DNA of 64,000 nucleotides from a virus (IMGVR_UViG_3300044856_000216:32001-96000); one strand, 5' to 3'; positions 5,028 through 57,725 are shown, counted from the stretch's first letter. Program-made: numbers and translations. The notes: generated from the letters alone by a model not told the origin.

Positions 5028-5072
5028 AATTTGTCGCCTCCACACGAAACCGATATTTCTTGTCCATTTTGT

Positions 5073-5117
5073 TACTATATATAGTAGTTTAAATTTATCT
5101 AACCACTATATATAGTG
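5073..5117. promoter_or_regulatory. pair of 14-nt perfect palindromes TACTATATATAGTA / CACTATATATAGTG
   Basis: 5073-5086 and 5104-5117 in an intergenic gap; related inverted pairs at 28091-28132 and 37543-37590. Confidence 0.4.
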
Positions 5118-5145
5118 TACTATTTTTCAATTTTTCTATATATTG

Positions 5146-5505
5146 TTATTCGCCTTTTATTCTGCAACCACCGTAGTCTCTATACCCATAATATTCTTCA
5201 AGAGATTTACTTGTCATAGTAGCCATTTCACATTTTGTACCTAATAATTCCTCAAGTACAAATGGGAGTTCATCAATTAAAACATGTTCTGGTTTCTTAT
5301 CAATTTTATCGCACCAAAAATCATCATCTAAAAATTCTGCAACTGTATAAACAGTTATTTTCTTATTTGTGATTTTTTCTGCACGTCTTTCAATATCTCT
5401 CTTCGTAGTTCTACGCAACGTAATAATTGGATAACCTGTTTTAACAGCTTCAATAATAATATTTGTTGTCTTACCACGACCTCTTGGTAAATTCATAATT
5501 TCCAT
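5146..5505 (-). CDS. small P-loop ATPase
   Basis: 119 aa; Walker A PRGRGKTT at the N-terminus; paralogous N-terminus to 14577-15083; SD AAGGAGAATAAATAT. Confidence 0.6.
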   Translation of the reverse strand: MEIMNLPRGRGKTTNIIIEAVKTGYPIITLRRTTKRDIERRAEKITNKKITVYTVAEFLDDDFWCDKIDKKPEHVLIDELPFVLEELLGTKCEMATMTSKSLEEYYGYRDYGGCRIKGE

Positions 5506-5554
5506 ATATTTATTCTCCTTTCAATTTCATAAGAAGCGATAAATTCCTACTTAT

Positions 5555-5830
5555 TTATTCTCTGTTCTTAGAATCCCATTTAATAAAATCTTCTAAATCA
5601 TATTCACCAGATTCTTCTTCCTTAATCTCAGGAACAAATACGTTATAATTACCTTCATTATGGTCATGTTCAATAATTTGTTTCAACATTTCATACATAT
5701 TTGTAATTCCTAACTGATATGCTCTCTTCTCGCCTTCAGTCATTCCGTCACAAATTTCATCATTCTTGTTTTCTAATAGATCCTTATATTTTTCTAAGCT
5801 TTCTACGATTAATAAAAATTCTTCGTTCAT
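5555..5830 (-). CDS. hypothetical protein
   Basis: 91-aa acidic ORF in gene train. Confidence 0.5.
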   Translation of the reverse strand: MNEEFLLIVESLEKYKDLLENKNDEICDGMTEGEKRAYQLGITNMYEMLKQIIEHDHNEGNYNVFVPEIKEEESGEYDLEDFIKWDSKNRE

Positions 5831-21573: not shown

Positions 21574-22116
21574 TTATTCTCCTAATGGTCTTTCATATGT
21601 AACTAATTTTTCAACAATTAGATCCTTTGGTAATAAATCTCTACAGAAATATGCTGTTGCAAATGGACTACCTTTTACTACAGAATCCATATGCTCCTTA
21701 TTGTGATAACAAATTCTTGCATCAAAACTAAGAATCTGAATACCATCTTTGAAATATTTATATCTTGTTTTACCTTGTAGGGAATTAAGCGGTAGAAGAA
21801 CCGCAAATGGTTTATTGAATGAATAGAGTCTTTCTAAGACTTTATCTTTGATTGAGAAGGGTGGATTGCTAACTATGATATCCCATTTTTCAGGTTCATA
21901 ATTAAAAAAATCCTGACCTTCAGCTAATGAACTTCTGACTACATTGTATCCTTCTTCTTTTAGTCTGTTGTAGAAAGCAGACCAGTTTTCATCAAATGGA
22001 CACCATATAATTTTATCTTTTGGAAGATATTTAATAATGTGATCTGTTGCGTAATAGGGCGTGTATAACTCATTATCTTCCTTATCTGATGTTAAATATC
22101 CAATATTTAATGCCAA
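21574..22116 (-). CDS. DNA N6-adenine methyltransferase (NPPF type)
   Basis: 180 aa; catalytic motif IV VSNPPFS; upstream IWCPFD resembles the SAM-binding motif; TTG start with weak context. Confidence 0.6.
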   Translation of the reverse strand: MALNIGYLTSDKEDNELYTPYYATDHIIKYLPKDKIIWCPFDENWSAFYNRLKEEGYNVVRSSLAEGQDFFNYEPEKWDIIVSNPPFSIKDKVLERLYSFNKPFAVLLPLNSLQGKTRYKYFKDGIQILSFDARICYHNKEHMDSVVKGSPFATAYFCRDLLPKDLIVEKLVTYERPLGE

Positions 22117-23638: not shown

Positions 23639-24370
23639 TTATTCTCCAACTACAAACAACTTTTCTACTGCTTTTTCACCTGTTACTCTATCCGACTTTT
23701 GTAACACTTTACGTTCTTTCTTCCAGATACACTTAAAATCATCAGGCATATTATATTCACTTACCAACACTATATTGCTCTCTGAAAGTTTACGAAGAAA
23801 ATCGTAAAAAGAATCATAGTCAATTGACTGTTTAGAATACTGTTTTGTATTTTTGTAAGGTGGATCAAAATAAAATACGCAATTTTTATAATCTGAGAAA
23901 TTTTGATAATCGCAGCACGTTATTTCAATATCTTTTAATAATGGAGAATCTTCTTTCAAATTTTTGACTCTTTCCTGATAGATATTACGCTTACCAGTTT
24001 TATCCTTACCCCAACCGCCATCGAAGTATCTGCCACCATACGAACCACAATATCCAATTAATGCTGTATACTCCTTGGAGTATTTGCCAGTTCCTAATTT
24101 TCTATTCTCTCTTACTTCTGCATAATGTTCAAAATTACAATCTGGTGGTGCAATAGAAAGCGTTGAATCAGATTTTACATACTGTAACAATGCTATCAAT
24201 TCATCATTTACATCTGCTGCAATTCTGTTATCACATTGAATTTTTTCAATAATCGAACAACTACCACACATAGGTTCTATGTAAGTTTTAATATGATTAT
24301 CATCAATATACTTCTGAATAATCGGCACTAAAAATTTTGCCAACCTGTTTTTACTTCCTTGATATACCAT
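23639..24370 (-). CDS. dam: Dam-family DNA adenine methyltransferase
   Basis: 243 aa; YQGSKNRLAKFLVPII ... YIEPMCGSCS (SAM motif) ... FDPPY catalytic motif. Confidence 0.8.
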   Translation of the reverse strand: MVYQGSKNRLAKFLVPIIQKYIDDNHIKTYIEPMCGSCSIIEKIQCDNRIAADVNDELIALLQYVKSDSTLSIAPPDCNFEHYAEVRENRKLGTGKYSKEYTALIGYCGSYGGRYFDGGWGKDKTGKRNIYQERVKNLKEDSPLLKDIEITCCDYQNFSDYKNCVFYFDPPYKNTKQYSKQSIDYDSFYDFLRKLSESNIVLVSEYNMPDDFKCIWKKERKVLQKSDRVTGEKAVEKLFVVGE

Positions 24371-25903: not shown

Positions 25904-26089
25904 ATTTTTTAATTCCTTTCTTTATTAGCATGTTTATATTGTTTTTATATAATAAGTGATCACCTATATTTATATTATTCTCTGATTTATTTAGATTTCT
26001 CATCATATCCAGTCTCTTCAAGGAATTTATCAAATTCCTCTTTTGTCATATTGTTTGGATAATACATATCCATCACCATATCAAATGGC

Positions 26090-26335
26090 TGCAAATAATT
26101 ATCTAACACATTTCAAAAACTTCACCTCTTTTCATATTAAGAGTACATTCATTTCTGTACTCTATGAGAGCATCCTTATTCCTCATCATTACATGTTAGG
26201 ATCGAGGTTTGTTCCAAGGCATTATATTCTCAAATAAGTTTCAGCCTATACGCTCATCGGTTGACTGACTTGTTAGTTTCAGCCTTCACCTTTACCTTTT
26301 CACCATCTCAGGATTCATTGGTTTATTTAACCGTT
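26090..26335 (-). ncRNA. putative TnpB omega-RNA (reRNA) scaffold region; ends not determinable
   Basis: GC-richer, ORF-poor stretch starting at the tnpB 3' end; 11-nt direct repeat AGGCTGAAACT (26237-26247, 26275-26285); 7-bp hairpin GAGTACA-N8-TGTACTC (26141-26162); position matches where omega-RNAs are encoded. Confidence 0.35.
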
Positions 26336-27552
26336 TGTAGTGGTATATTTACGACTACTGGATGTGAACCTGCATCCACTATCCCATTGACGAAAGCCTT
26401 TGGGAATACCTTTTTCATTATCTGATAACTACCATTTACGTCTGCATTAATATATTTTCCCTTCTCACTCTGAAACAAACCTCTGTGAATTCTTCTGTCT
26501 TTATTGTAATTTTTCTCAATTGGTTCTTCACCATCAAGAAAAGATGTACCACTTGTATAACTTTCATTTGTTTTAATAAATTTAATTCCTTCATTCTCGC
26601 ATTTATATTCAAGCCTTTGTACAATACTTAAATATGGAATAGATACAAATTTCTGATTAACTCTTTTGCCCATATTGGTATCTTGTTTCCAGCCTGAATT
26701 ATAACCACAAACTAAAGTATCAATATTATTACACTTACAAAAATTTACCACCATCTTTGTTGATTTCTGAATATAGTCATCTACTTGATTATTTCTTTTA
26801 GTTGTAAATCTTTGCATCTCATTTGACCAATCACTATCATTTCTCAGCTTTAATGCAGATCTCATTTCTGAAATTTTCTTATTATAATACTGATTAATTG
26901 ACTTTAATGGTTTTCCATTTATTATAATTGGACTCACGTCACAGTTTGTTGTAATAGTCATTAAATTATCAACACCTAAGTCAATCGCAGCAATTCTCTC
27001 TGATACTATATTCTCTGTTTCAGGAACTTCTATTTTATATACTATCTCCATAACATAATAATCGGCTTTGGGAACAAATCTACATTGCATCAGTTTACCT
27101 TCAGCATGAGTATTCACTGTATAACCACCAAAAGGTTTAAATGCAATTCTGAATTGTCTATCATTTAATGAGCACTGTATATTCTTCAGCATAAAAACCT
27201 GTCTGCCGTCCTTCGGTAAATACTTAGGTAATTTTGGCATTCCTAAATACTTTGATGGATTTTTCTTCCAATCTTTTATTGCAACAAAATAGCCTTTCCA
27301 CATTTTATCTACAAGCTGTATTGTTTTCTGTGCTGCTTGCGAACCACATTCCTTATAGCAATCCATTGACTGCATAAGTTTTTGGACATCATAAGCACCT
27401 ATTTTATTTTTATTATTAATGAATTCTTGTCTAATAATATAATTTGCTTGATTATATACATTCTTTGAATAGAAACAATACTGGTCTACAATTTTATATA
27501 TAGGATTATTTCTTTTAATTATTTGCTGTTCAACACGATTAACTTTTTTCAT
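26323..27552 (-). CDS. tnpB: TnpB (IS200/IS605-family OrfB) RNA-guided RuvC nuclease
   Basis: 409 aa; RuvC-I IAAIDLGVDN, RuvC-II KTNESYTSGTS, RuvC-III INADVNGSYQI; the segment between II and III lacks the usual CxxC pairs; no tnpA in the window. Confidence 0.85.
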   Translation of the reverse strand: MKKVNRVEQQIIKRNNPIYKIVDQYCFYSKNVYNQANYIIRQEFINNKNKIGAYDVQKLMQSMDCYKECGSQAAQKTIQLVDKMWKGYFVAIKDWKKNPSKYLGMPKLPKYLPKDGRQVFMLKNIQCSLNDRQFRIAFKPFGGYTVNTHAEGKLMQCRFVPKADYYVMEIVYKIEVPETENIVSERIAAIDLGVDNLMTITTNCDVSPIIINGKPLKSINQYYNKKISEMRSALKLRNDSDWSNEMQRFTTKRNNQVDDYIQKSTKMVVNFCKCNNIDTLVCGYNSGWKQDTNMGKRVNQKFVSIPYLSIVQRLEYKCENEGIKFIKTNESYTSGTSFLDGEEPIEKNYNKDRRIHRGLFQSEKGKYINADVNGSYQIMKKVFPKAFVNGIVDAGSHPVVVNIPLQTVK

Positions 27553-27562
27553 TTAGTTTCCT

Positions 27563-27729
27563 TTATTTATTATTTTAAAAATTACATAGCTCTAAAACTA
27601 CTATTATTAATATGATTGTTGCTATAAGGGTTTATTACTAATTAAAATTACATAGCTCTAAAACCAAGTGATAATGCTGTAGCAACTCTGTTGGGTTTAT
27701 TACTAATTAAAATTACATAGCTCTAAAAC
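27563..27729 (-). CRISPR. mini-CRISPR array, 3 repeats / 2 spacers, type II-A-like repeat
   Basis: minus-strand repeat GTTTTAGAGCTATGTAATTTTAATTAGTAATAAACC at 27694-27729 and 27629-27664 (identical); third copy 27563-27598 matches the first 21 nt and then degenerates; spacers CAACAGAGTTGCTACAGCATTATCACTTG (27665-27693) and CTTATAGCAACAATCATATTAATAATAGTA (27599-27628). Confidence 0.8.
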
Positions 27730-27750
27730 CTCAAATATGTATTCGTAATT

Positions 27751-27779
27751 TATATAGTTTCTTGAAGTTTTACGTTCAA
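27751..27779 (-). promoter_or_regulatory. candidate sigma-70-type promoter in the array leader
   Basis: minus strand TTGAAC (27774-27779), 17-nt spacer, TATATA (27751-27756), about 20 nt upstream of the first repeat. Confidence 0.25.
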
Positions 27780-27880
27780 TGGACAAAACCCACGCCCACT
27801 ATCCAATTGATTTCTCTTTTGGAATACTTGCTACAGGATAAACATTTATCTATCCTGTATTTATATATTCTCTCTTTCAA

Positions 27881-28030: not shown

Positions 28031-28090
28031 TGTCTCACCTCCTAAATTTTTCAGAAGAAATTCCGCTTTCTTTCGGTCTTGATTTTTATA

Positions 28091-28132
28091 CAATATATAG
28101 TATTTGTTGTAATTATTTAATACTATATATTG
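28091..28132. promoter_or_regulatory. 14-nt inverted repeat pair CAATATATAGTATT / AATACTATATATTG
   Basis: perfect arms 28091-28104 and 28119-28132; same ACTATATAT core as the sites at 5073-5117 and 37543-37590. Confidence 0.4.
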
Positions 28133-28177
28133 TATATGCTATTTTGTTTTCAACTACTTATTGTATTATTCTCCATT

Positions 28178-28390
28178 TTATTTTCTAACCACATATAAAT
28201 AACTAAATCCACCAGCATTACCTACAGGCTGTGCTAATAAACACATTGCTACATGGTCTGAATCATATACCCTATTACCCTGGCGAAATTGCTTTCCAAA
28301 ATTTATCTCACCAATACCTCCAACTAACTGTGGCTTATCACCACAAGCAGAACTTAATCCACTTGTGGCTGATGAAAATTTGCCATCTTC
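28178..28390 (-). pseudogene. start-less open frame encoding a C5-methyltransferase TRD-like segment
   Basis: 70 sense codons with no ATG/GTG/TTG before codon 48; ...GGIGEINFGKQFRQGNRVYDSDHVAMCLLAQPVGNAGGFSYLYVV resembles target-recognition modules of SPbeta-type C5 MTases; overlaps the MTase 3' end by 37 nt in the -1 frame. Confidence 0.4.
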
Positions 28391-29859
28391 TCATCTGTAC
28401 AAATATATGTATTGTCATACTGAGCCTTATATAAATGCTCAATCAACAAAGAGATGCAAGTTGTCACTATACTGTTACCGCTTTGTTTATATCCCTGGGT
28501 ATCAGACATTCCAACTGCTTTACAGTTCTCATAATCAATATCATCGAATCCCATGAGCCTGTGGCACTCTTTTGGTGTGAGCTTTCTCACAACTCTTAAA
28601 TTGTCTCTATCTTCTTCGACCATTTGTTGCCGATTTCCTCCCTGGCATGTTGTTATTGTTGGAGAAATATAATCTTTGTCCCAAACATTTCCTGCGAATC
28701 CAGTTCCTTTATTTTCACCATAAATATTAAAAAGTCTTTTTATATTATTTGAATCTGCAAGAATCTGTTTTGGCTGTTTATAATCAGTTGCCACTAAAGT
28801 ACCCATTACTGAATCCTGCTGATAAACTAAATCTCTCTGACCGATAGTTCTGAATTCAGGTTTTGTAGTGCCAACAATATTTTTTTTAAATTTTGGATCT
28901 GTTATCTGAAGTCTTTTCTGTACTTCATCAGATAAGAAATATTTCGCCAAAACACTGCTATCTGTTTCTAATAAATCCTTTAATCTGATTCCTGTGTCAA
29001 AAGGCTGTGGAAATTCAAAAGACTTGGTATCAATATCCTTACGAATAGAGATACAGAAGATTCTATTACGATTCTGTGGAACACCTGTGTTCTTTGCATT
29101 GATTGTCTGATAATATGAGTTATATCCCAAGTTATCAAGCCGAATCAGCCAATCCTTAAAACTGTCAATATACTTCTTTGATACAAGAGCATCTACATTC
29201 TCCATAAGCAAATACTTTGGCAATGTGTTATTCTCTTTTGCTTTTACAAGAAGTCTCTCAACTTCATACAATAAACCTGAACGAGTTGATTTAATGTTGT
29301 GACTGCCACAATTAGGGCAAGTATAACGAGTATCTACATCTAATTCTGATGGATCATATTCACAACCACAATCATGACATGTCCACTTTAATCCTTCCTG
29401 TTTACCGGCGATTGACAAATCTGTGCATGGAGTCGAGTATGTAAGTAAATCACTATATGGCAGTGACTCAATCTGCATCATATCGCCAAGATTATGTGAA
29501 ATATGGTCTGCTAACCAATATTTCTCAATACCTTTTGTCTTGTTCTTCTTTCGTGAAAGTTTTTCCCAATCATACGGAACATCTTTTTTAAAATCATATC
29601 CAAGTCTCTTATCTGTAAGCTGTCTTACCATTTCTTCTTTGCTTGGATAATCTTCATAGTTTTCAATCATCTCATTAGTCAAACCACAATGCATTGCAGC
29701 ATAACTAACTACTACTTCTTTGTCTAAATCTGCTGTTGCAATCATATTTGCATTAAATAGATGAGTATTATCAATTCCCTTCATCTGCGCACCAATACCA
29801 CTACAAAGCTCAATTACACTTAACTCACAATAATTATTTTTTTCTTTATTCTCTGTCAA
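28354..29859 (-). CDS. DNA (cytosine-5)-methyltransferase, SPbeta/phi3T-like with zinc-ribbon insert
   Basis: 501 aa; motif I ELCSGIGAQ, IV TPCTDLS, VI LMENV, VIII QNRNRIF, IX RKLTPKECHRLMGF, X SGNSIV; CHDCGC...CPNCG inserted after motif IV; TTG start. Confidence 0.9.
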   Translation of the reverse strand: MTENKEKNNYCELSVIELCSGIGAQMKGIDNTHLFNANMIATADLDKEVVVSYAAMHCGLTNEMIENYEDYPSKEEMVRQLTDKRLGYDFKKDVPYDWEKLSRKKNKTKGIEKYWLADHISHNLGDMMQIESLPYSDLLTYSTPCTDLSIAGKQEGLKWTCHDCGCEYDPSELDVDTRYTCPNCGSHNIKSTRSGLLYEVERLLVKAKENNTLPKYLLMENVDALVSKKYIDSFKDWLIRLDNLGYNSYYQTINAKNTGVPQNRNRIFCISIRKDIDTKSFEFPQPFDTGIRLKDLLETDSSVLAKYFLSDEVQKRLQITDPKFKKNIVGTTKPEFRTIGQRDLVYQQDSVMGTLVATDYKQPKQILADSNNIKRLFNIYGENKGTGFAGNVWDKDYISPTITTCQGGNRQQMVEEDRDNLRVVRKLTPKECHRLMGFDDIDYENCKAVGMSDTQGYKQSGNSIVTTCISLLIEHLYKAQYDNTYICTDEKMANFHQPQVD

Positions 29860-33822: not shown

Positions 33823-35211
33823 TTAATACTCTATCCAACCATCTGTAATACCAGTCATCCAATAAATAAGATCTTCTCTATCATTTTTTAATCTTCCATC
33901 TATTACACGAGTTAAGATTTCATTGAGCCAGTAGCCAACTTCTTTTCCACTTTTAATAAGCATTGTATCCATTACATCTTTTCCATTAACTGCTAAATCC
34001 TTTAGAGAAAAACATTCATCATCTTGTAAGACTTCTTCTAAAATATATTCAATTTTATCAATCTTTTGCAATCTAGTTTCCTGATTCATGTCTGCTTGTG
34101 CTTTAATGTCAGCTCTGCGAACATTTAGTAATCTTCTGAACTGTTCTTCTCCGATTTTATTAAGCCATCTCTTGATATATTTCTTTCCCACCTCAAAAGT
34201 AGCATCATGATAATAAACTAATTCAACGACCTTTTCTCTTGTATCATTGTCAAAACGAAGTCTTTTCATAATTGTATCAGTTATATCAGCACTGACTTTT
34301 CCATGCCCTTTAAAATGTCTAATACCATCTTCGCCATCTTGATAACAATGTGGCTTTCCAATATCATGAAAAAATACAGCCAATGACGTAATCAAATCTC
34401 TTGGATTCAAGTCGGGTTCACAATCACATTCATAAGCTTGTACTGCATGTACTGTATGATTCCATACATCATAGATGTGATATGGATTATTCTGTGGAAA
34501 ATCAAACATATCTTTTATTTCAGGGATAAATAACGAGAATACTTCACGGAATAATCCTATCTGTATATAAAACTCACTTGATAATGCAATTTTACAGAAC
34601 TCACTGTTAATTCTCTCAATAGATATATTCTCTAAATTCTTATACATTTTATGAATATTCAAACTTACATCAGAATCAACCACAAATCCCAGTTGTGAAG
34701 CAAATCGAATAGCACGTAAAATCCTTAAAGCATCTTCTGAAAATCTATCCTCTGCTTTACCAACACATCTGATTTTATAATGCTCAATATCTTCCATGCC
34801 ATTAAACGGATCTACAAAACCAACTTCATCATTGTATGCCATCGCATTGATTGTAAAATCTCTACGCTTTAAATCTTCTTTAAGATTTCGTGTAAATGTT
34901 ACACTATCAGGTCTACGGCTATCTGAGTAATTACCGTCAATTCTGTAAGTGGTACATTCATATCCCTCACCGTCAATTACAATGGTAATAGTTCCATGCT
35001 GCAATCCAGTTTCAATAATCCTCTTGTCCTTGAATACTTCCATCATTTCATCTGGTGTAGCAGATGTTGTAATATCATAGTCATGGATTGGTCTGCCAAG
35101 AATACTATCTCTCACTGCACCACCACATAAAAATGCCTCATATCCATTACTATGCAGAATATGGATAATTTCATTTGCACCAGATGGAATTTCAATTTTC
35201 AATCTTTTCAT
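33823..35211 (-). CDS. cca: CCA-adding tRNA nucleotidyltransferase with HD domain
   Basis: 462 aa; GGAVRDSILGRPIHDYDITT head-domain motif, RRDFTINAMA, HD motif FFHDIGKP. Confidence 0.85.
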   Translation of the reverse strand: MKRLKIEIPSGANEIIHILHSNGYEAFLCGGAVRDSILGRPIHDYDITTSATPDEMMEVFKDKRIIETGLQHGTITIVIDGEGYECTTYRIDGNYSDSRRPDSVTFTRNLKEDLKRRDFTINAMAYNDEVGFVDPFNGMEDIEHYKIRCVGKAEDRFSEDALRILRAIRFASQLGFVVDSDVSLNIHKMYKNLENISIERINSEFCKIALSSEFYIQIGLFREVFSLFIPEIKDMFDFPQNNPYHIYDVWNHTVHAVQAYECDCEPDLNPRDLITSLAVFFHDIGKPHCYQDGEDGIRHFKGHGKVSADITDTIMKRLRFDNDTREKVVELVYYHDATFEVGKKYIKRWLNKIGEEQFRRLLNVRRADIKAQADMNQETRLQKIDKIEYILEEVLQDDECFSLKDLAVNGKDVMDTMLIKSGKEVGYWLNEILTRVIDGRLKNDREDLIYWMTGITDGWIEY

Positions 35212-45643: not shown

Positions 45644-45773
45644 ATCCGTTAGTGGATTAAACTATGGTAGAACTATAGCAGCTACACATTCTGCTCTTAC
45701 AAGGCAATATGTATGTACAAAGAAACAAGTGCCTTGCGTTATGCACTTACATCGGGTGTGATTCAGTGCATAG

Positions 45774-45845
45774 CAGGGCTAGTTGGATTCGAACCAACGA
45801 ATGCGAGAATCAAAATCTCGTGCCTTACCGCTTGGCGATAGCCCT
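45774..45845 (-). tRNA. tRNA-Gln (anticodon UUG), CCA not encoded
   Basis: AGGGCTATCGCCAAGCGGTAAGGCACGAGATTTTGATTCTCGCATTCGTTGGTTCGAATCCAACTAGCCCTG folds as a cloverleaf; loop UUUUGAU; aligns position by position with E. coli tRNA-Gln; followed by CTA, not CCA. Confidence 0.9.
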
Positions 45846-47353: not shown

Positions 47354-48334
47354 TCACATCTCCATCAATTTCTCTTTCATTCCAACAGCTCCATTGGCAT
47401 AATTATTAACTGTTGTATTTACACTACTATGTCCAAGCTGCTGCTGAACAAATGCAAGATTTCCATTTCTGTTCATTATACTAGCATAATAATGTCGCAT
47501 CATATGTGGAGTAATACCATTTCCATAATTCTCAAATATCTGTTTGATATTTCTCTCTGTTGTACGTGTACCGTTTTTATTTACAAACACAGCTTCCGTA
47601 TCTACAATATTGTCTAAGGTACTTCTGTATTCTAACCATTCTCTTATAGCTTTTAAAGCAGATCCACTAAGATATACCGTTCTATTTTGCATTTCTCTAT
47701 ACACGCCCTTACCAAGAATAGTAATATATGGCATTTCTTCGTCCAAATGTAAATCAGATAAATCCAAACCAGCAAGTTCAGATTCTCTTATTCCAGTTCC
47801 TCTTAACACACGAAAGATAGCAATATTCCTATTTCTTACTGGAATATCCTTTTTCCACATTATTTTCTGTTCCATATCATTAAGCTGTTTTTCTGTTGGG
47901 AGTTTTTTAGTTAAGTTGTTCCCAGATGGAATTCCTTTATATGTTACATCTTTAAAGAATTTATCTTTAATTTCAGTTCCTTTTACTCTGCTCATATAAT
48001 CCCAAAAGCTACTTATTATATGTTTCCTAGTTTCTAATGTTGTAGGTGACATTCCATTCTGCTCTTTTGTCTTTAAATATAACGTGATATCTTCTGCCAT
48101 AATGTCAGTAAAATCCGATGGCTCAATATCTGAAATATTTGTTTTATCAATAAGTTTCTCTTTAATAAACCAATTGAGTAAATCTACAATAACCCCAAGA
48201 TAATTCAATGCGCCTGCTTTACTCTCTATCTTTACAGTAAAATATTTTCTCATATATATAGGAAGATTTAACTCATCCAACTTTCTATTAAGCTTTTCAG
48301 CATTTTTATTTTGTATTTTTATTTTGTAACACAT
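47354..48334 (-). CDS. int: tyrosine recombinase / phage integrase family
   Basis: 326 aa; RGTGIRESEL (Arg I), HMMRHYYAS (His-x-x-Arg), LGHSSVNTTVNNY (His...Tyr). Confidence 0.85.
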   Translation of the reverse strand: MCYKIKIQNKNAEKLNRKLDELNLPIYMRKYFTVKIESKAGALNYLGVIVDLLNWFIKEKLIDKTNISDIEPSDFTDIMAEDITLYLKTKEQNGMSPTTLETRKHIISSFWDYMSRVKGTEIKDKFFKDVTYKGIPSGNNLTKKLPTEKQLNDMEQKIMWKKDIPVRNRNIAIFRVLRGTGIRESELAGLDLSDLHLDEEMPYITILGKGVYREMQNRTVYLSGSALKAIREWLEYRSTLDNIVDTEAVFVNKNGTRTTERNIKQIFENYGNGITPHMMRHYYASIMNRNGNLAFVQQQLGHSSVNTTVNNYANGAVGMKEKLMEM

Positions 48335-48339
48335 AATTA

Positions 48340-48609
48340 TCACTCCCTTGTGTAATCTGCTATCGCTTTTGCAATAGCTTTAGCTGCTCTTTTACTTTTT
48401 AATGATCTCTGAATAGATTCTGTATTCCAAGGGACATCACTAAACTCAGCTAACTCACCACCACAATTCCAATTCGGAATACTAAAGAACCCTCCATTTA
48501 CATATTCTCCGAAAATCACACTATAATAATTTCCATTATATTCAACACCTATATGGTGAATATTTTCAACATAAGCATCACCATTATAACCGATTTTATA
48601 ATTTTCCAT
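48340..48609 (-). CDS. hypothetical protein
   Basis: 89 aa; start at ATG after GTGAGGTTGATTAAT. Confidence 0.5.
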   Translation of the reverse strand: MENYKIGYNGDAYVENIHHIGVEYNGNYYSVIFGEYVNGGFFSIPNWNCGGELAEFSDVPWNTESIQRSLKSKRAAKAIAKAIADYTRE

Positions 48610-55839: not shown

Positions 55840-55872
55840 ATAATCACCTCCATTATATTATTCTCCAATCGA

Positions 55873-57725
55873 GTAGGAGGGAAATTTAACGAAATTTCCC
55901 GACCTCTCACACCACCGTGCGTACCGTTCGGTACACGGCGGTTCAATCAACTTAACAAGTAACGCACCTTTCGGTGTAGTAATCTAACATTGAGACTAAT
56001 CCAAATGAGGTTAGTCTCTTTGTACTTATAGCCTTTTGTATCCATCCATTGTGGGCGAGTCTTGCATATCTGTCTCCGCAATACGCTATTTTAAATGCTG
56101 CCCATCTTGGTACATCAAGTTTCATAAGGTTCTTTGCTCTGTTTTGTGGAGTTTTCCAATGTTTCCAAATGCACATACGAAGTCTGTATCTGATGCTACC
56201 ATCTAGTTCTCGACAAAGTGTTTTCATACTTCCAATTTTAAAGTAATTTATCCAACCTCTGATGAGTTGATTTAATTTCTCCACCTTGTAGCTGTTGCTA
56301 ACGCCCCAGCTACGGCATGTGAGTTCTTTCATTCTTTTCTTAAACTTCGCTACTGATTTTGCATGTGGTTTTGCCTTAAACTGATGTGCTCTTGTGTCAA
56401 AGTAGAACCCAAACCCAAGGTATTTAAGTCCGCTTGGTCTGTCTACTTTACTCTTTGTCATGTTGACCTTGAGACCTAGTTTCTCCTCAATAAATCGAGA
56501 TATGTTTCTCATTACCCGATTTGCAGACATTTCACTTCCAACCATGATAATACAGTCATCTGCATATCGCACAAAGTTAAGCCCTCGCTTTTCCATTTCC
56601 TTATCAAGTTCATTGAGCATGATGTTTGCCAATAACGGCGAAAGATTTCCTCCTTGCGGTGTTCCCACAATAGAATCCTCATATTCATCGTCTATCATGA
56701 TTCCGCTGACAAGGTATTTCCTTATGATAGAGATAACATCTCCATCTTTTATAGTTCTGCCTATGATAGTCATAAGCTTGTCATGGTTTACCGTGTCAAA
56801 GAACTTTTCCAAGTCAATGTCTACAATCCAATCGTTACCATCATTCATCATGTCAAGTGCTGTTAGGATTGCTTGCTGTGCACATCTATTCGGTCTGAAT
56901 CCATAACTATGTTCATGGAATTGTTCCTCGTAGATTGGTGTTAATACCTGTGCAATGGCTTGCTGTATGAATCTGTCTGTTACTGTTGGTACTCCTAGGT
57001 TTCTGACACCGCCATCGGGCTTTGGTATCTCCACTCTTCGTACTGGTTGAGGTTTATACTTTCTTGTCCCCAACTGTTCCTTGATGATTTCGCCGTTCTT
57101 TTCAAGATGTTCTTTGAGTTCCGTGTACTTCATTCCGTCCACTCCCTCTGCACCTTTATTTCGTACGACTTGCAGATATGCTCTGTTGAGATTATCGCTA
57201 GATAAAATCTGCTCCATTAGACTACTTGTGTCCATGCGTTCTTTCCTTTCCGTCTCGCTTGATTTGACCATCTTTTACCCGATTGGTTACGGCAGATGTT
57301 GCCATTTCTGCAATACGAGACATACTCAAACTTATTGATTGTTCGCCCCTTCGCTCCATTTCCATTACAGAAACTTCTTCACTACTATGGGCTCGGCTGA
57401 CTTCTCACAGTTCGTTGTTACTAGGCTAATAGAACCTCTGTGAGACCTCCACGCTTAAGGTGCACGCTCTTTCTCTCCATACATCCGCCACATTTACTCT
57501 GCTACTACAAAAAGTGATAATTATTAGACTTCGTTGCTTTTAGCCAACTTATCTCTCATAGCCTAGCCTTATATGTGATTTCTATCCGTCGGACCAGAGA
57601 TTTGCTTACAGCTTCCTTCAGATTCCATCTCACGATGAACACCCTTGCTGTTCAGCTATACACTTCCCACTATCTGGGCGTGTTCGGGACTTTCACCCGT
57701 TAGAGCGCGCCCATGGCGCGCAAAC
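55873..57725 (-). mobile_element. group II intron, class IIC-like (ends +/- a few nt)
   Basis: 5' end GTTTGCGCGCCATGGGCGCGCTCTAACGGGTGAAAGTCCCGAAC closely parallels the Oceanobacillus iheyensis IIC intron as I recall it; domain V ACCGCCGTGTACC-GAAC-GGTACGCACGGTGGT at 55905-55940; domain VI GGGAAATTT-CGTT-AAATTTCCC; RT/maturase ORF inside. Confidence 0.85.
55952..57235 (-). CDS. ltrA: group II intron reverse transcriptase/maturase (no endonuclease domain)
   Basis: 427 aa from ATG after AAAGGAAAGAACGC; RT blocks PKPDGGVRNLGVPTVTDRFIQ, YGFRPNRCAQQA, DIDLEKFFD, GTPQGGNLSPLLAN, RYADD; X/maturase C-terminus; no HNH. Confidence 0.9.
   Translation of the reverse strand: MDTSSLMEQILSSDNLNRAYLQVVRNKGAEGVDGMKYTELKEHLEKNGEIIKEQLGTRKYKPQPVRRVEIPKPDGGVRNLGVPTVTDRFIQQAIAQVLTPIYEEQFHEHSYGFRPNRCAQQAILTALDMMNDGNDWIVDIDLEKFFDTVNHDKLMTIIGRTIKDGDVISIIRKYLVSGIMIDDEYEDSIVGTPQGGNLSPLLANIMLNELDKEMEKRGLNFVRYADDCIIMVGSEMSANRVMRNISRFIEEKLGLKVNMTKSKVDRPSGLKYLGFGFYFDTRAHQFKAKPHAKSVAKFKKRMKELTCRSWGVSNSYKVEKLNQLIRGWINYFKIGSMKTLCRELDGSIRYRLRMCIWKHWKTPQNRAKNLMKLDVPRWAAFKIAYCGDRYARLAHNGWIQKAISTKRLTSFGLVSMLDYYTERCVTC

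Follow-up and report, generated by a model that had tools for sequence, protein, structure and literature searches.

A TnpB-like nuclease gene and a phage-carried mini-CRISPR array of apparent type II-A descent: a probable transposon-CRISPR intermediate

How the TnpB nucleases of transposons became effectors of CRISPR systems is an open question. Intermediates between TnpB and Cas12 are known from about 50 independent type V-U events (PMC10691335, PMC12669027), and from the TranC systems of 300-600 amino acids (aa); both kinds link a TnpB-sized nuclease to a CRISPR array (Jin et al., Cell 2025, cited in PMC13565253; PMC10691335). One TnpB-sized TranC, CauTranC9, is found in a Caudoviricetes genome, and the guides of compact type V and TranC systems are composed of three or four stem-loops, a stem between an anti-repeat and the repeat, a short unpaired stretch, and the guide itself (bioRxiv 10.64898/2026.03.27.714800). 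As for the arrays, a survey published in PNAS in 2023 considers that they arise by duplication of a segment of the transposon-type guide RNA (omegaRNA) or by insertion near a pre-existing array, the second of which "cannot be ruled out" (PMC10691335). The locus described here lies in IMGVR_UViG_3300044856_000216:32001-96000, a 64,000-nucleotide (nt) stretch of viral DNA referred to below as the window, in which a short CRISPR array at positions 27,563-27,729 is directly followed by a tnpB-like gene on the same (minus) strand. The best explanation of this pairing, and a probable one on the sequence evidence, is a transposon-CRISPR intermediate of the TranC or type V-U kind that makes use of a captured type II-A array.

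The array consists of two identical copies of a 36-nt repeat, GTTTTAGAGCTATGTAATTTTAATTAGTAATAAACC, on the minus strand (27729-27694 and 27664-27629), and a third copy (27598-27563) in which only the first 21 nt (27578-27598) are intact and which merges with tnpB at the Shine-Dalgarno site and start codon of the gene. Between the copies lie spacers of 29 nt (CAACAGAGTTGCTACAGCATTATCACTTG, 27665-27693) and 30 nt (CTTATAGCAACAATCATATTAATAATAGTA, 27599-27628), which gives a period of 65/66 nt. All of these features, as described in an earlier note on this DNA, were found again in the sequence. A fuzzy search of the window revealed no further repeat copies, and in Rfam there were sub-threshold matches to CRISPR-DR22 only. 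The array is a genuine, phage-carried CRISPR array and far beyond chance, because its leader and repeat were met again, together with 35 different spacers, in about 44 distinct public contigs. The point at which the terminal repeat is truncated is identical across all clades, and the last repeat is fused to the ribosome-binding site of tnpB. Insertion of tnpB into a repeat was considered as an origin of the truncation and rejected, since the missing half of the terminal repeat, expected beyond tnpB, was not there in a fuzzy search of the window.

The tnpB-like gene (26323-27552, minus strand) starts 10 nt past the degenerate repeat and codes for a candidate effector of 409 aa. Its product scores 188 bits against the NCBIfam "RNA-guided endonuclease TnpB family" (guided_TnpB, NF040570; cutoff 100) and matches OrfB_IS605 and the Cas12f1-like TNB domain in Pfam. 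The RuvC triad D191/E330/D371 is invariant, and the D-E-D is intact in all array-bearing TnpBs. The gene is under purifying selection, with a ratio of nonsynonymous to synonymous substitutions (dN/dS) of 0.06-0.08 at dS 0.34-0.76. The AlphaFold (AF2) model of the protein, with a confidence score (pLDDT) of 79, has its best structural matches in AsCas12f and the ISDra2 TnpB (8H1J, 8J12). There are no added domains, and at 409 aa the protein is TnpB-sized; an identification as Cas12 hacker (Cas12p) was rejected since this is a different family, of 500-700 aa. Residues ~331-368, between RuvC-II and RuvC-III and modelled with low confidence (pLDDT <50), contain no cysteines, while many TnpBs have CxxC...CxxC there. 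The zinc finger thus appears to have been lost in the clade of the window TnpB.

The earlier note had also reported that the 64 kb contain no cas genes. This stands for cas9, cas1, cas2, and csn2: tblastn with verified II-A proteins from a bacterial locus (L259) gave nothing below E 0.9 in the window (best E ~0.9), and none of these genes was found at any locus bearing the array and tnpB. What had been missed is the gene of the TnpB/Cas12-like nuclease itself. The longest open reading frame (ORF) in the window has 685 aa.

Comparison with related loci also takes away the label of "orphan" that the array had been given. A scan for the leader-junction pattern, which is independent of the protein, brought the total to 64 loci on about 44 distinct contigs, and tnpB lies directly downstream, 30-99 nt past the last repeat, in all 61 of the 61 assessable array loci (about 40 contigs), including those to which the leader or the repeat pattern had led without the protein. 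In IMG/VR, 7 contigs contain the repeat core, and the close relatives of the window are IMG/VR contigs of 100-186 kb. The layout recurs, with diverged repeats, around TnpBs at 63-71% identity on other phage contigs and on one contig of Eubacterium segne. The array-bearing TnpBs (63-98% identity) form one clade in a neighbour-joining tree, nested among array-less relatives. The association of the TnpB-like nuclease with a CRISPR array is evolutionarily conserved, since the pairing persists down to 63% protein identity and in at least 5 different flanking contexts.

One could consider that an insertion sequence carrying tnpB landed once beside a phage mini-array and was co-inherited with it, with TnpB using its own 3' omegaRNA only. 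TnpB relatives are highly abundant (7,615 matches), which favours such a landing. So does the case of L322 (metagenome contig ULWV01003215.1), where a TnpB 91% identical to that of the window goes together with a repeat, GTTTGATGACTATGTGAATTTATAGGATAGTAAACC, that differs at about 11 of 36 positions; this suggests that repeats can be swapped or that they evolve rapidly compared to the nuclease. However, a single landing followed by passive inheritance is at odds with a pairing that survives such divergence and so many changes of surroundings, and with the fusion of the last repeat to the ribosome-binding site of tnpB in all clades. The leader and the spacers, described below, bear on this explanation as well.

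Conservation extends over a module of about 1.5 kb, made up of a leader (omegaRNA-like scaffold and anti-repeat), the mini-array, tnpB, and a canonical omegaRNA. On the left it begins with GTATTCC at 27827, about 98 nt upstream of repeat 1, and on the right it ends with ...AATGAATC at 26312, 11 nt past the tnpB stop codon. The sequence outside these borders varies between phage groups, on the right side even at 96-98% tnpB identity. The last ~100 nt before the right border, which mostly belong to the 3' end of the ORF, show nucleotide-level conservation and contain conserved hairpins with covariation, and array-less relatives have the same sharp right border. For these reasons the canonical omegaRNA is considered to be retained in the module; its 3' scaffold (26312-26409, minus strand) overlaps the 3' end of tnpB and ends in ...AATGAATC, which is the right end of the transposon. 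That this omegaRNA is complete, and that array-less relatives have its sharp right end in common, is a further point in favour of the co-inherited insertion sequence.

Right after the omegaRNA end, in the position of a canonical omegaRNA guide, is a variable segment (25985-26311, minus strand). It comprises ~330 nt with a small ORF in the window, is missing in L070-72, and is represented by unrelated sequences in L073 and L095, whose tnpB genes are 96-98% identical to that of the window; the site just past the right end is thus a hot spot. A possible covariation between the 3' end of the repeat and the terminal hairpin of the omegaRNA was also considered and rejected. The AAACC of the repeat is constant in all clades, while the hairpin varies (GGTT/AACC, GGCT/AGCC, and GGTAAAA/TTTTACC).

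The 98-nt leader (27730-27827, minus strand) looks like a diverged second copy of the omegaRNA 3' scaffold, with three hairpins, followed by an anti-repeat and the motif ATTTGAG. Aligned with the omegaRNA scaffold (27827-27730 against 26409-26312), it scores 20.5 compared to 9.9 +/- 1.7 for shuffles, and this score was reached by 0 of 1000 shuffles and 0 of 981 other genomic segments. A joint alignment of the two contains two shared hairpins with 15 pairs, of which 5 have compensatory changes and almost none is broken. The third hairpin is formed by TTGAA...TTCAA in the leader and by GTAGT...ACTAC in the omegaRNA, and it holds the -35 box of a promoter proposed earlier. That promoter, TTGAAC-17-TATATA, is indeed present in the sequence (27779-27751), but the other clades have not conserved it, and its position is within the conserved hairpin. 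Matches to the promoter consensus are no more frequent than in shuffles.

The putative anti-repeat within the leader (27737-27758, minus strand) pairs with positions 12-29 of the repeat. Over 16 distinct combinations of leader and repeat, 97.3% of the cells are paired, compared to at most 40% in slid registers, and the observed value was reached by 0 of 500 shuffles. Compensatory changes are seen in independent lineages: C-G has become U-A in L320 and in L322, where the leader follows the diverged repeat, and a neighbouring pair has changed in the window clade. With its copy of the omegaRNA scaffold and, behind it, an anti-repeat in covariation with the repeat, the leader resembles a tracrRNA (trans-activating CRISPR RNA) and is a candidate for such an element in cis. 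The architecture predicted for leader and repeat fits the published layout of compact type V and TranC guides. The view that the window has no anti-repeat or tracrRNA therefore needs correction, the leader itself holding an anti-repeat-like segment; a tracrRNA of the II-A type was looked for, and the 64 kb contain no 16-mer complementary to the 5' part of the repeat (with up to 2 mismatches). Duplex scans of the module on both strands gave other candidates for anti-repeats outside the leader, which were rejected as products of the near-palindromic 5' end of the repeat or as single-clade coding matches. An array leader that seems to be a scaffold copy and that covaries with the repeat also speaks against a merely co-inherited insertion sequence, and together with the link between spacers and TnpB described below it makes that explanation quite improbable.

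The repeat itself has another ancestry. It is 36 nt long, begins with GTTTTAGA, and belongs to a family typical of II-A arrays with ~30-nt spacers. ATTTGAG, the leader-end motif of type II-A Group 1 (27730-27736, minus strand), abuts the GTTT of repeat 1 and is conserved in nearly all module variants; ATTTGAG-GTTT is the Group 1 type II-A leader-repeat junction, which is required for spacer integration (PMC5382924). The junction pattern was also found in 106 bacterial loci, which have arrays of 5-53 repeats and belong mostly to gut Bacilli, Clostridia, and Mycoplasmatota, and 54-75 of the 106 encode all four proteins (Cas9, Cas1, Cas2, and Csn2). The repeats of such bacterial II-A loci are up to 31/36 identical to the phage repeat. 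The closest locus, L259, is a verified cas9-cas1-cas2-csn2-leader-array, and there are only 2 differences in the first 22 nt of the repeat between the phage and a verified II-A locus. The II-A-like character noted earlier for the repeat is thus confirmed and extended to the junction, and both appear to descend from a type II-A array.

These likenesses also favour the explanation put forward in the earlier note, that the array parasitises a type II-A system of the host. The host's tracrRNA, RNase III, and Cas9 would then process the CRISPR RNAs (crRNAs) of the phage and use them against its rivals, and tnpB would be a mere neighbour. Viral mini-arrays with repeats identical to those of the host, and which use the host's Cas proteins, are established (PMC11656645), and the truncated terminal repeat of the window keeps those 21 nt at the 5' end with which a II-A tracrRNA pairs. 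However, outside the same TnpB module, there are 0 exact and 0 degenerate matches to the phage repeat in 185,579 bacterial and archaeal species genomes, whereas the known mini-arrays have host-identical repeats. Also, the derived 3' end AAACC is found in every module variant, unlike the AAAAC of bacterial II-A repeats, and the linkage to tnpB is obligate.

The spacers provide further evidence. There are 35 different ones, of 29-32 nt (mode 30), with 1-3 spacers per array. Near-identical phages with the same leader and gene have differing spacers, such as sp04 alone, sp05 followed by sp04, and sp06 followed by sp04. Because the trailer-side spacers are common to related phages and the leader-side spacers are different, these arrays indicate that spacers are acquired at the leader end and that the array is active. 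In a few arrays the differences are internal or at the trailer end, as would fit a deletion or a recombination.

In all, 7 independent protospacers were found, with 0-3 mismatches, and all are in other viral contigs, of three families: an element of 28 kb that carries a tyrosine-recombinase gene, contigs of small size (5-28 kb), and elements of 42-57 kb in which there is a TubZ-like gene. Over 8 kb, one of these families has 97% identity to a genome contig of Roseburia sp. The targets are other mobile, prophage-like elements of Lachnospiraceae. The proposal that the spacers are aimed at competing mobile elements is thus borne out by the 7 protospacers in other viral contigs. Targeting occurs on both DNA strands relative to the target genes. 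For the window's own two spacers the outcome was mixed: spacer 1 perfectly matches the tyrosine-recombinase gene of a viral contig (L150), with the 5' flank CCAAA, but for spacer 2 none of the collections searched contains a target. Nor does IMG/VR contain one for the T-starting spacer of L001, no credible matches were found when the spacers were compared with cultured phages and plasmids, and self-targets are absent from the window and the related loci. On the plus strand of L150, at 1658-1757, spacer 1 of the window and spacer 1 of L003/L007, which belong to two different lineages of phages, hit the same recombinase gene on the same strand, 40 nt apart; the gene may be a hot spot of acquisition or selection.

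In all 7 of the 7 protospacers, the 5' flank is RAA in the orientation of the spacer, with AA at -2/-1 in 7/7 and R at -3 in 7/7. For the AA at -2/-1, P = 1.3e-7, or 3e-5 with a generous correction. The 3' flanks of the same 7 protospacers contain no comparable motif, the best column being a G at +3 in 5/7. Since RAA is present at 5' in every case and there is no 3' protospacer-adjacent motif (PAM), the flank points to TnpB or Cas12 rather than Cas9: the motif is on the TnpB/Cas12 side, and the consistent 3' PAM that Cas9 would need is lacking. Three targets (L159, L162, and L170) have an intact protospacer and an altered 5' flank, with ACA, AAG, and ACC among the variants, which looks like escape.

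The first base of the spacer is also constrained. It is Y in 34 of 35 spacers and matches the target. It is C where the omegaRNA ends in ...ATGAAT-C and T where it ends in ...ATGAAT-T (Fisher p 5.6e-6; two or three independent clade contrasts). Because the omegaRNA junction base predicts the first spacer base, this rule links the spacers to the guide rules of TnpB itself. Neither the 5' motif nor the first-base rule is expected if host Cas9 uses the crRNAs, nor if tnpB is a passenger. With the 5' RAA, the linkage to tnpB, the absence of the repeat from bacterial genomes, and the omegaRNA-like leader, the parasitism of a host II-A system through Cas9 is mostly unsupported. Host Cas9 is unlikely to be the effector, although it may use the crRNAs in addition, and the explanation as a whole has a low probability.

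A further explanation is that the spacers have no function and that the repeats act as decoys or regulators, in the form of RNA anti-CRISPRs or cr-like RNAs that sequester Cas9 or the adaptation proteins of the host. Such roles are known for solitary repeats and cr-like RNAs carried by phages (PMC11656645; also bioRxiv 2024.10.29.618823). However, the spacers of this module turn over, match their targets perfectly over 29-31 nt, and obey a flank rule, and the flanks of their targets show escape-like changes. A decoy needs none of these, which makes the explanation hardly credible.

The preferred explanation, an intermediate of the TranC or type V-U kind, would work as follows. Transcription would come from upstream and pass through the leader, the array, and tnpB. 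The leader would provide three scaffold hairpins and the anti-repeat, which would pair with the middle and 3' part of the repeat; the pairing would take place in cis in the case of spacer 1 and in trans in that of later spacers. The result would be a split omegaRNA, made of a tracr-like RNA and a repeat-spacer crRNA, which would direct TnpB to cut the DNA of rival elements beside a 5' RAA(Y). Since the gene retains its own 3' omegaRNA as well, the nuclease probably works with guides of both kinds. TranCs are reportedly able to do so, using both transposon-type and CRISPR guide RNAs.

There are no adaptation genes at the locus, and spacer uptake therefore depends on something outside it. Because the repeat and junction appear to be of II-A descent, new spacers are most likely inserted in trans by the Cas1-Cas2(-Csn2-Cas9) integrase of a host II-A system. 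A fuller version of events can be proposed more tentatively, as somewhat less probable than its negation: the phage TnpB may have captured a II-A array and turned a duplicate of its own omegaRNA scaffold into a built-in tracrRNA, and may now rely on the host II-A integrase for spacers that only TnpB can use.

Several observations weigh against the preferred explanation. The protospacer set is small, with 7 from three target families, and both the covariation of the anti-repeat and the first-base rule come from few clade contrasts (2-4 independent lineages). In the clade of the window, the duplex of leader and repeat is weak, with a free energy (dG) of -7.9 that is matched by 105 of 300 shuffles. 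No conserved promoter was found upstream of the leader, and the sole promoter-like site of the window clade lies inside the scaffold. The complete canonical omegaRNA means that TnpB could in principle function without the array. The terminal repeat keeps precisely the 5' 21 nt, the portion needed by a Cas9-type crRNA, which a type V-like model does not explain. Also, the TnpB of L322 is 91% identical to that of the window and its repeat about 11 positions apart, and therefore repeat and nuclease are not tightly co-evolving. As for the adaptation step, no II-A locus or adaptation genes were seen in Eubacterium segne or Roseburia sp.

The surroundings of the module are phage-like in that they contain PHROG families, an integrase, methyltransferases, and a group II intron. 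The intron (55868-57639, minus strand) has Rfam matches for D1-D4 and for domain V/VI above the gathering score, and contains a reverse-transcriptase ORF of 439 aa (55952-57271). Within 8 kb around the module are three DNA methyltransferase-like genes (21574-22116, 23639-24370, and 28354-29859, minus strand), of which the one of 501 aa matches cytosine methylase families. This suggests that anti-restriction functions cluster around the module. The module is preceded by a 70-aa membrane-like ORF, upstream of which, at 28087-28136, is a perfect 18-nt inverted repeat, TATACAATATATAGTATT / AATACTATATATTGTATA, with the arms 14 nt apart; it is possibly an operator. Further away are tRNA-Gln(TTG) (45773-45845), a tyrosine integrase (47354-48343), and a tRNA nucleotidyltransferase-like gene (33823-35211, minus strand). 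The integrase and a related prophage-like region in Eubacterium segne fit a temperate lifestyle.

As for mobility of the module, there is one copy per contig and no tnpA was noticed. The module occurs in at least 5 flanking contexts, and its left flank, (C/A)AA-G, incompletely fits RAA(Y). In another viral contig (L110, IMGVR_UViG_3300043436_004687, 339 kb), a TnpB relative with 44% identity is followed, about 850 nt downstream, by a different array (5071-5570), which has at least 8 repeats, GTTGTGATTCCCTCACGGATTAGGATAAATACCAAT, and a period of 66-67 nt. The two probably represent a separate TnpB/Cas12-CRISPR association, in a huge phage.

The module looks like a concrete case of the route through a pre-existing array, having a II-A array, a duplicated scaffold, an ancestral omegaRNA that has been kept, and array-less sisters. 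If, in addition, a host II-A integrase loads its spacers, it would be an example of cross-type parasitism of adaptation, and a living type V-like system that was born by capture of a pre-existing array and not by omegaRNA duplication. Also, some of the "orphan" mini-arrays of phages may bring their own minimal effector. A nuclease of 409 aa with a very short predicted 5' motif (RAA) would be of interest for genome editing if confirmed.

Compared to known systems, the module has features of several. With the IS200/IS605 TnpB-omegaRNA elements such as ISDra2, it has in common the protein family and fold, an omegaRNA that overlaps the 3' end of the gene, a sharp right end, and a 5' motif. It differs from such OMEGA elements in having a CRISPR array and a second scaffold upstream, in that no tnpA was seen, and in its RAA in place of a target-adjacent motif (TAM) of 4-5 nt. 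With type II-A systems it has in common a 36-nt repeat starting with GTTTTAGA, spacers of ~30 nt, the ATTTGAG-GTTT junction, and polarity at the leader end. In contrast to them it lacks cas9, cas1, cas2, csn2, and a II-A-type tracrRNA, and has a 5' flank motif and AAACC for AAAAC. Like the orphan mini-arrays of viruses, it is phage-borne, has 1-3 spacers against competing mobile elements, and is without adaptation genes. Those arrays, however, have a host-identical repeat and no effector, whereas the repeat of the module is found in no bacterial array and the gene of a nuclease is fused to it.

The TranC and type V-U systems are the closest in their apparent working, the module having been set beside the published clades by description only. 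Some differences remain. The array of the module is upstream of the gene, while the arrays of the PNAS 2023 survey are almost always downstream (PMC10691335). Its repeat and junction appear to be of II-A descent and not derived from an omegaRNA, there are only 1-3 spacers, and it is the leader of the array itself, lying on the same strand, that constitutes the tracr-like element. What it has in common with these systems is a TnpB-sized RuvC nuclease with no added domains, a short array without cas1 or cas2, and a short 5' motif, as well as a guide predicted to consist of an omegaRNA-derived scaffold and a stem of anti-repeat and repeat. Like them, it is carried by a phage and directed at other phages, and beside its CRISPR array it keeps a transposon-type omegaRNA.
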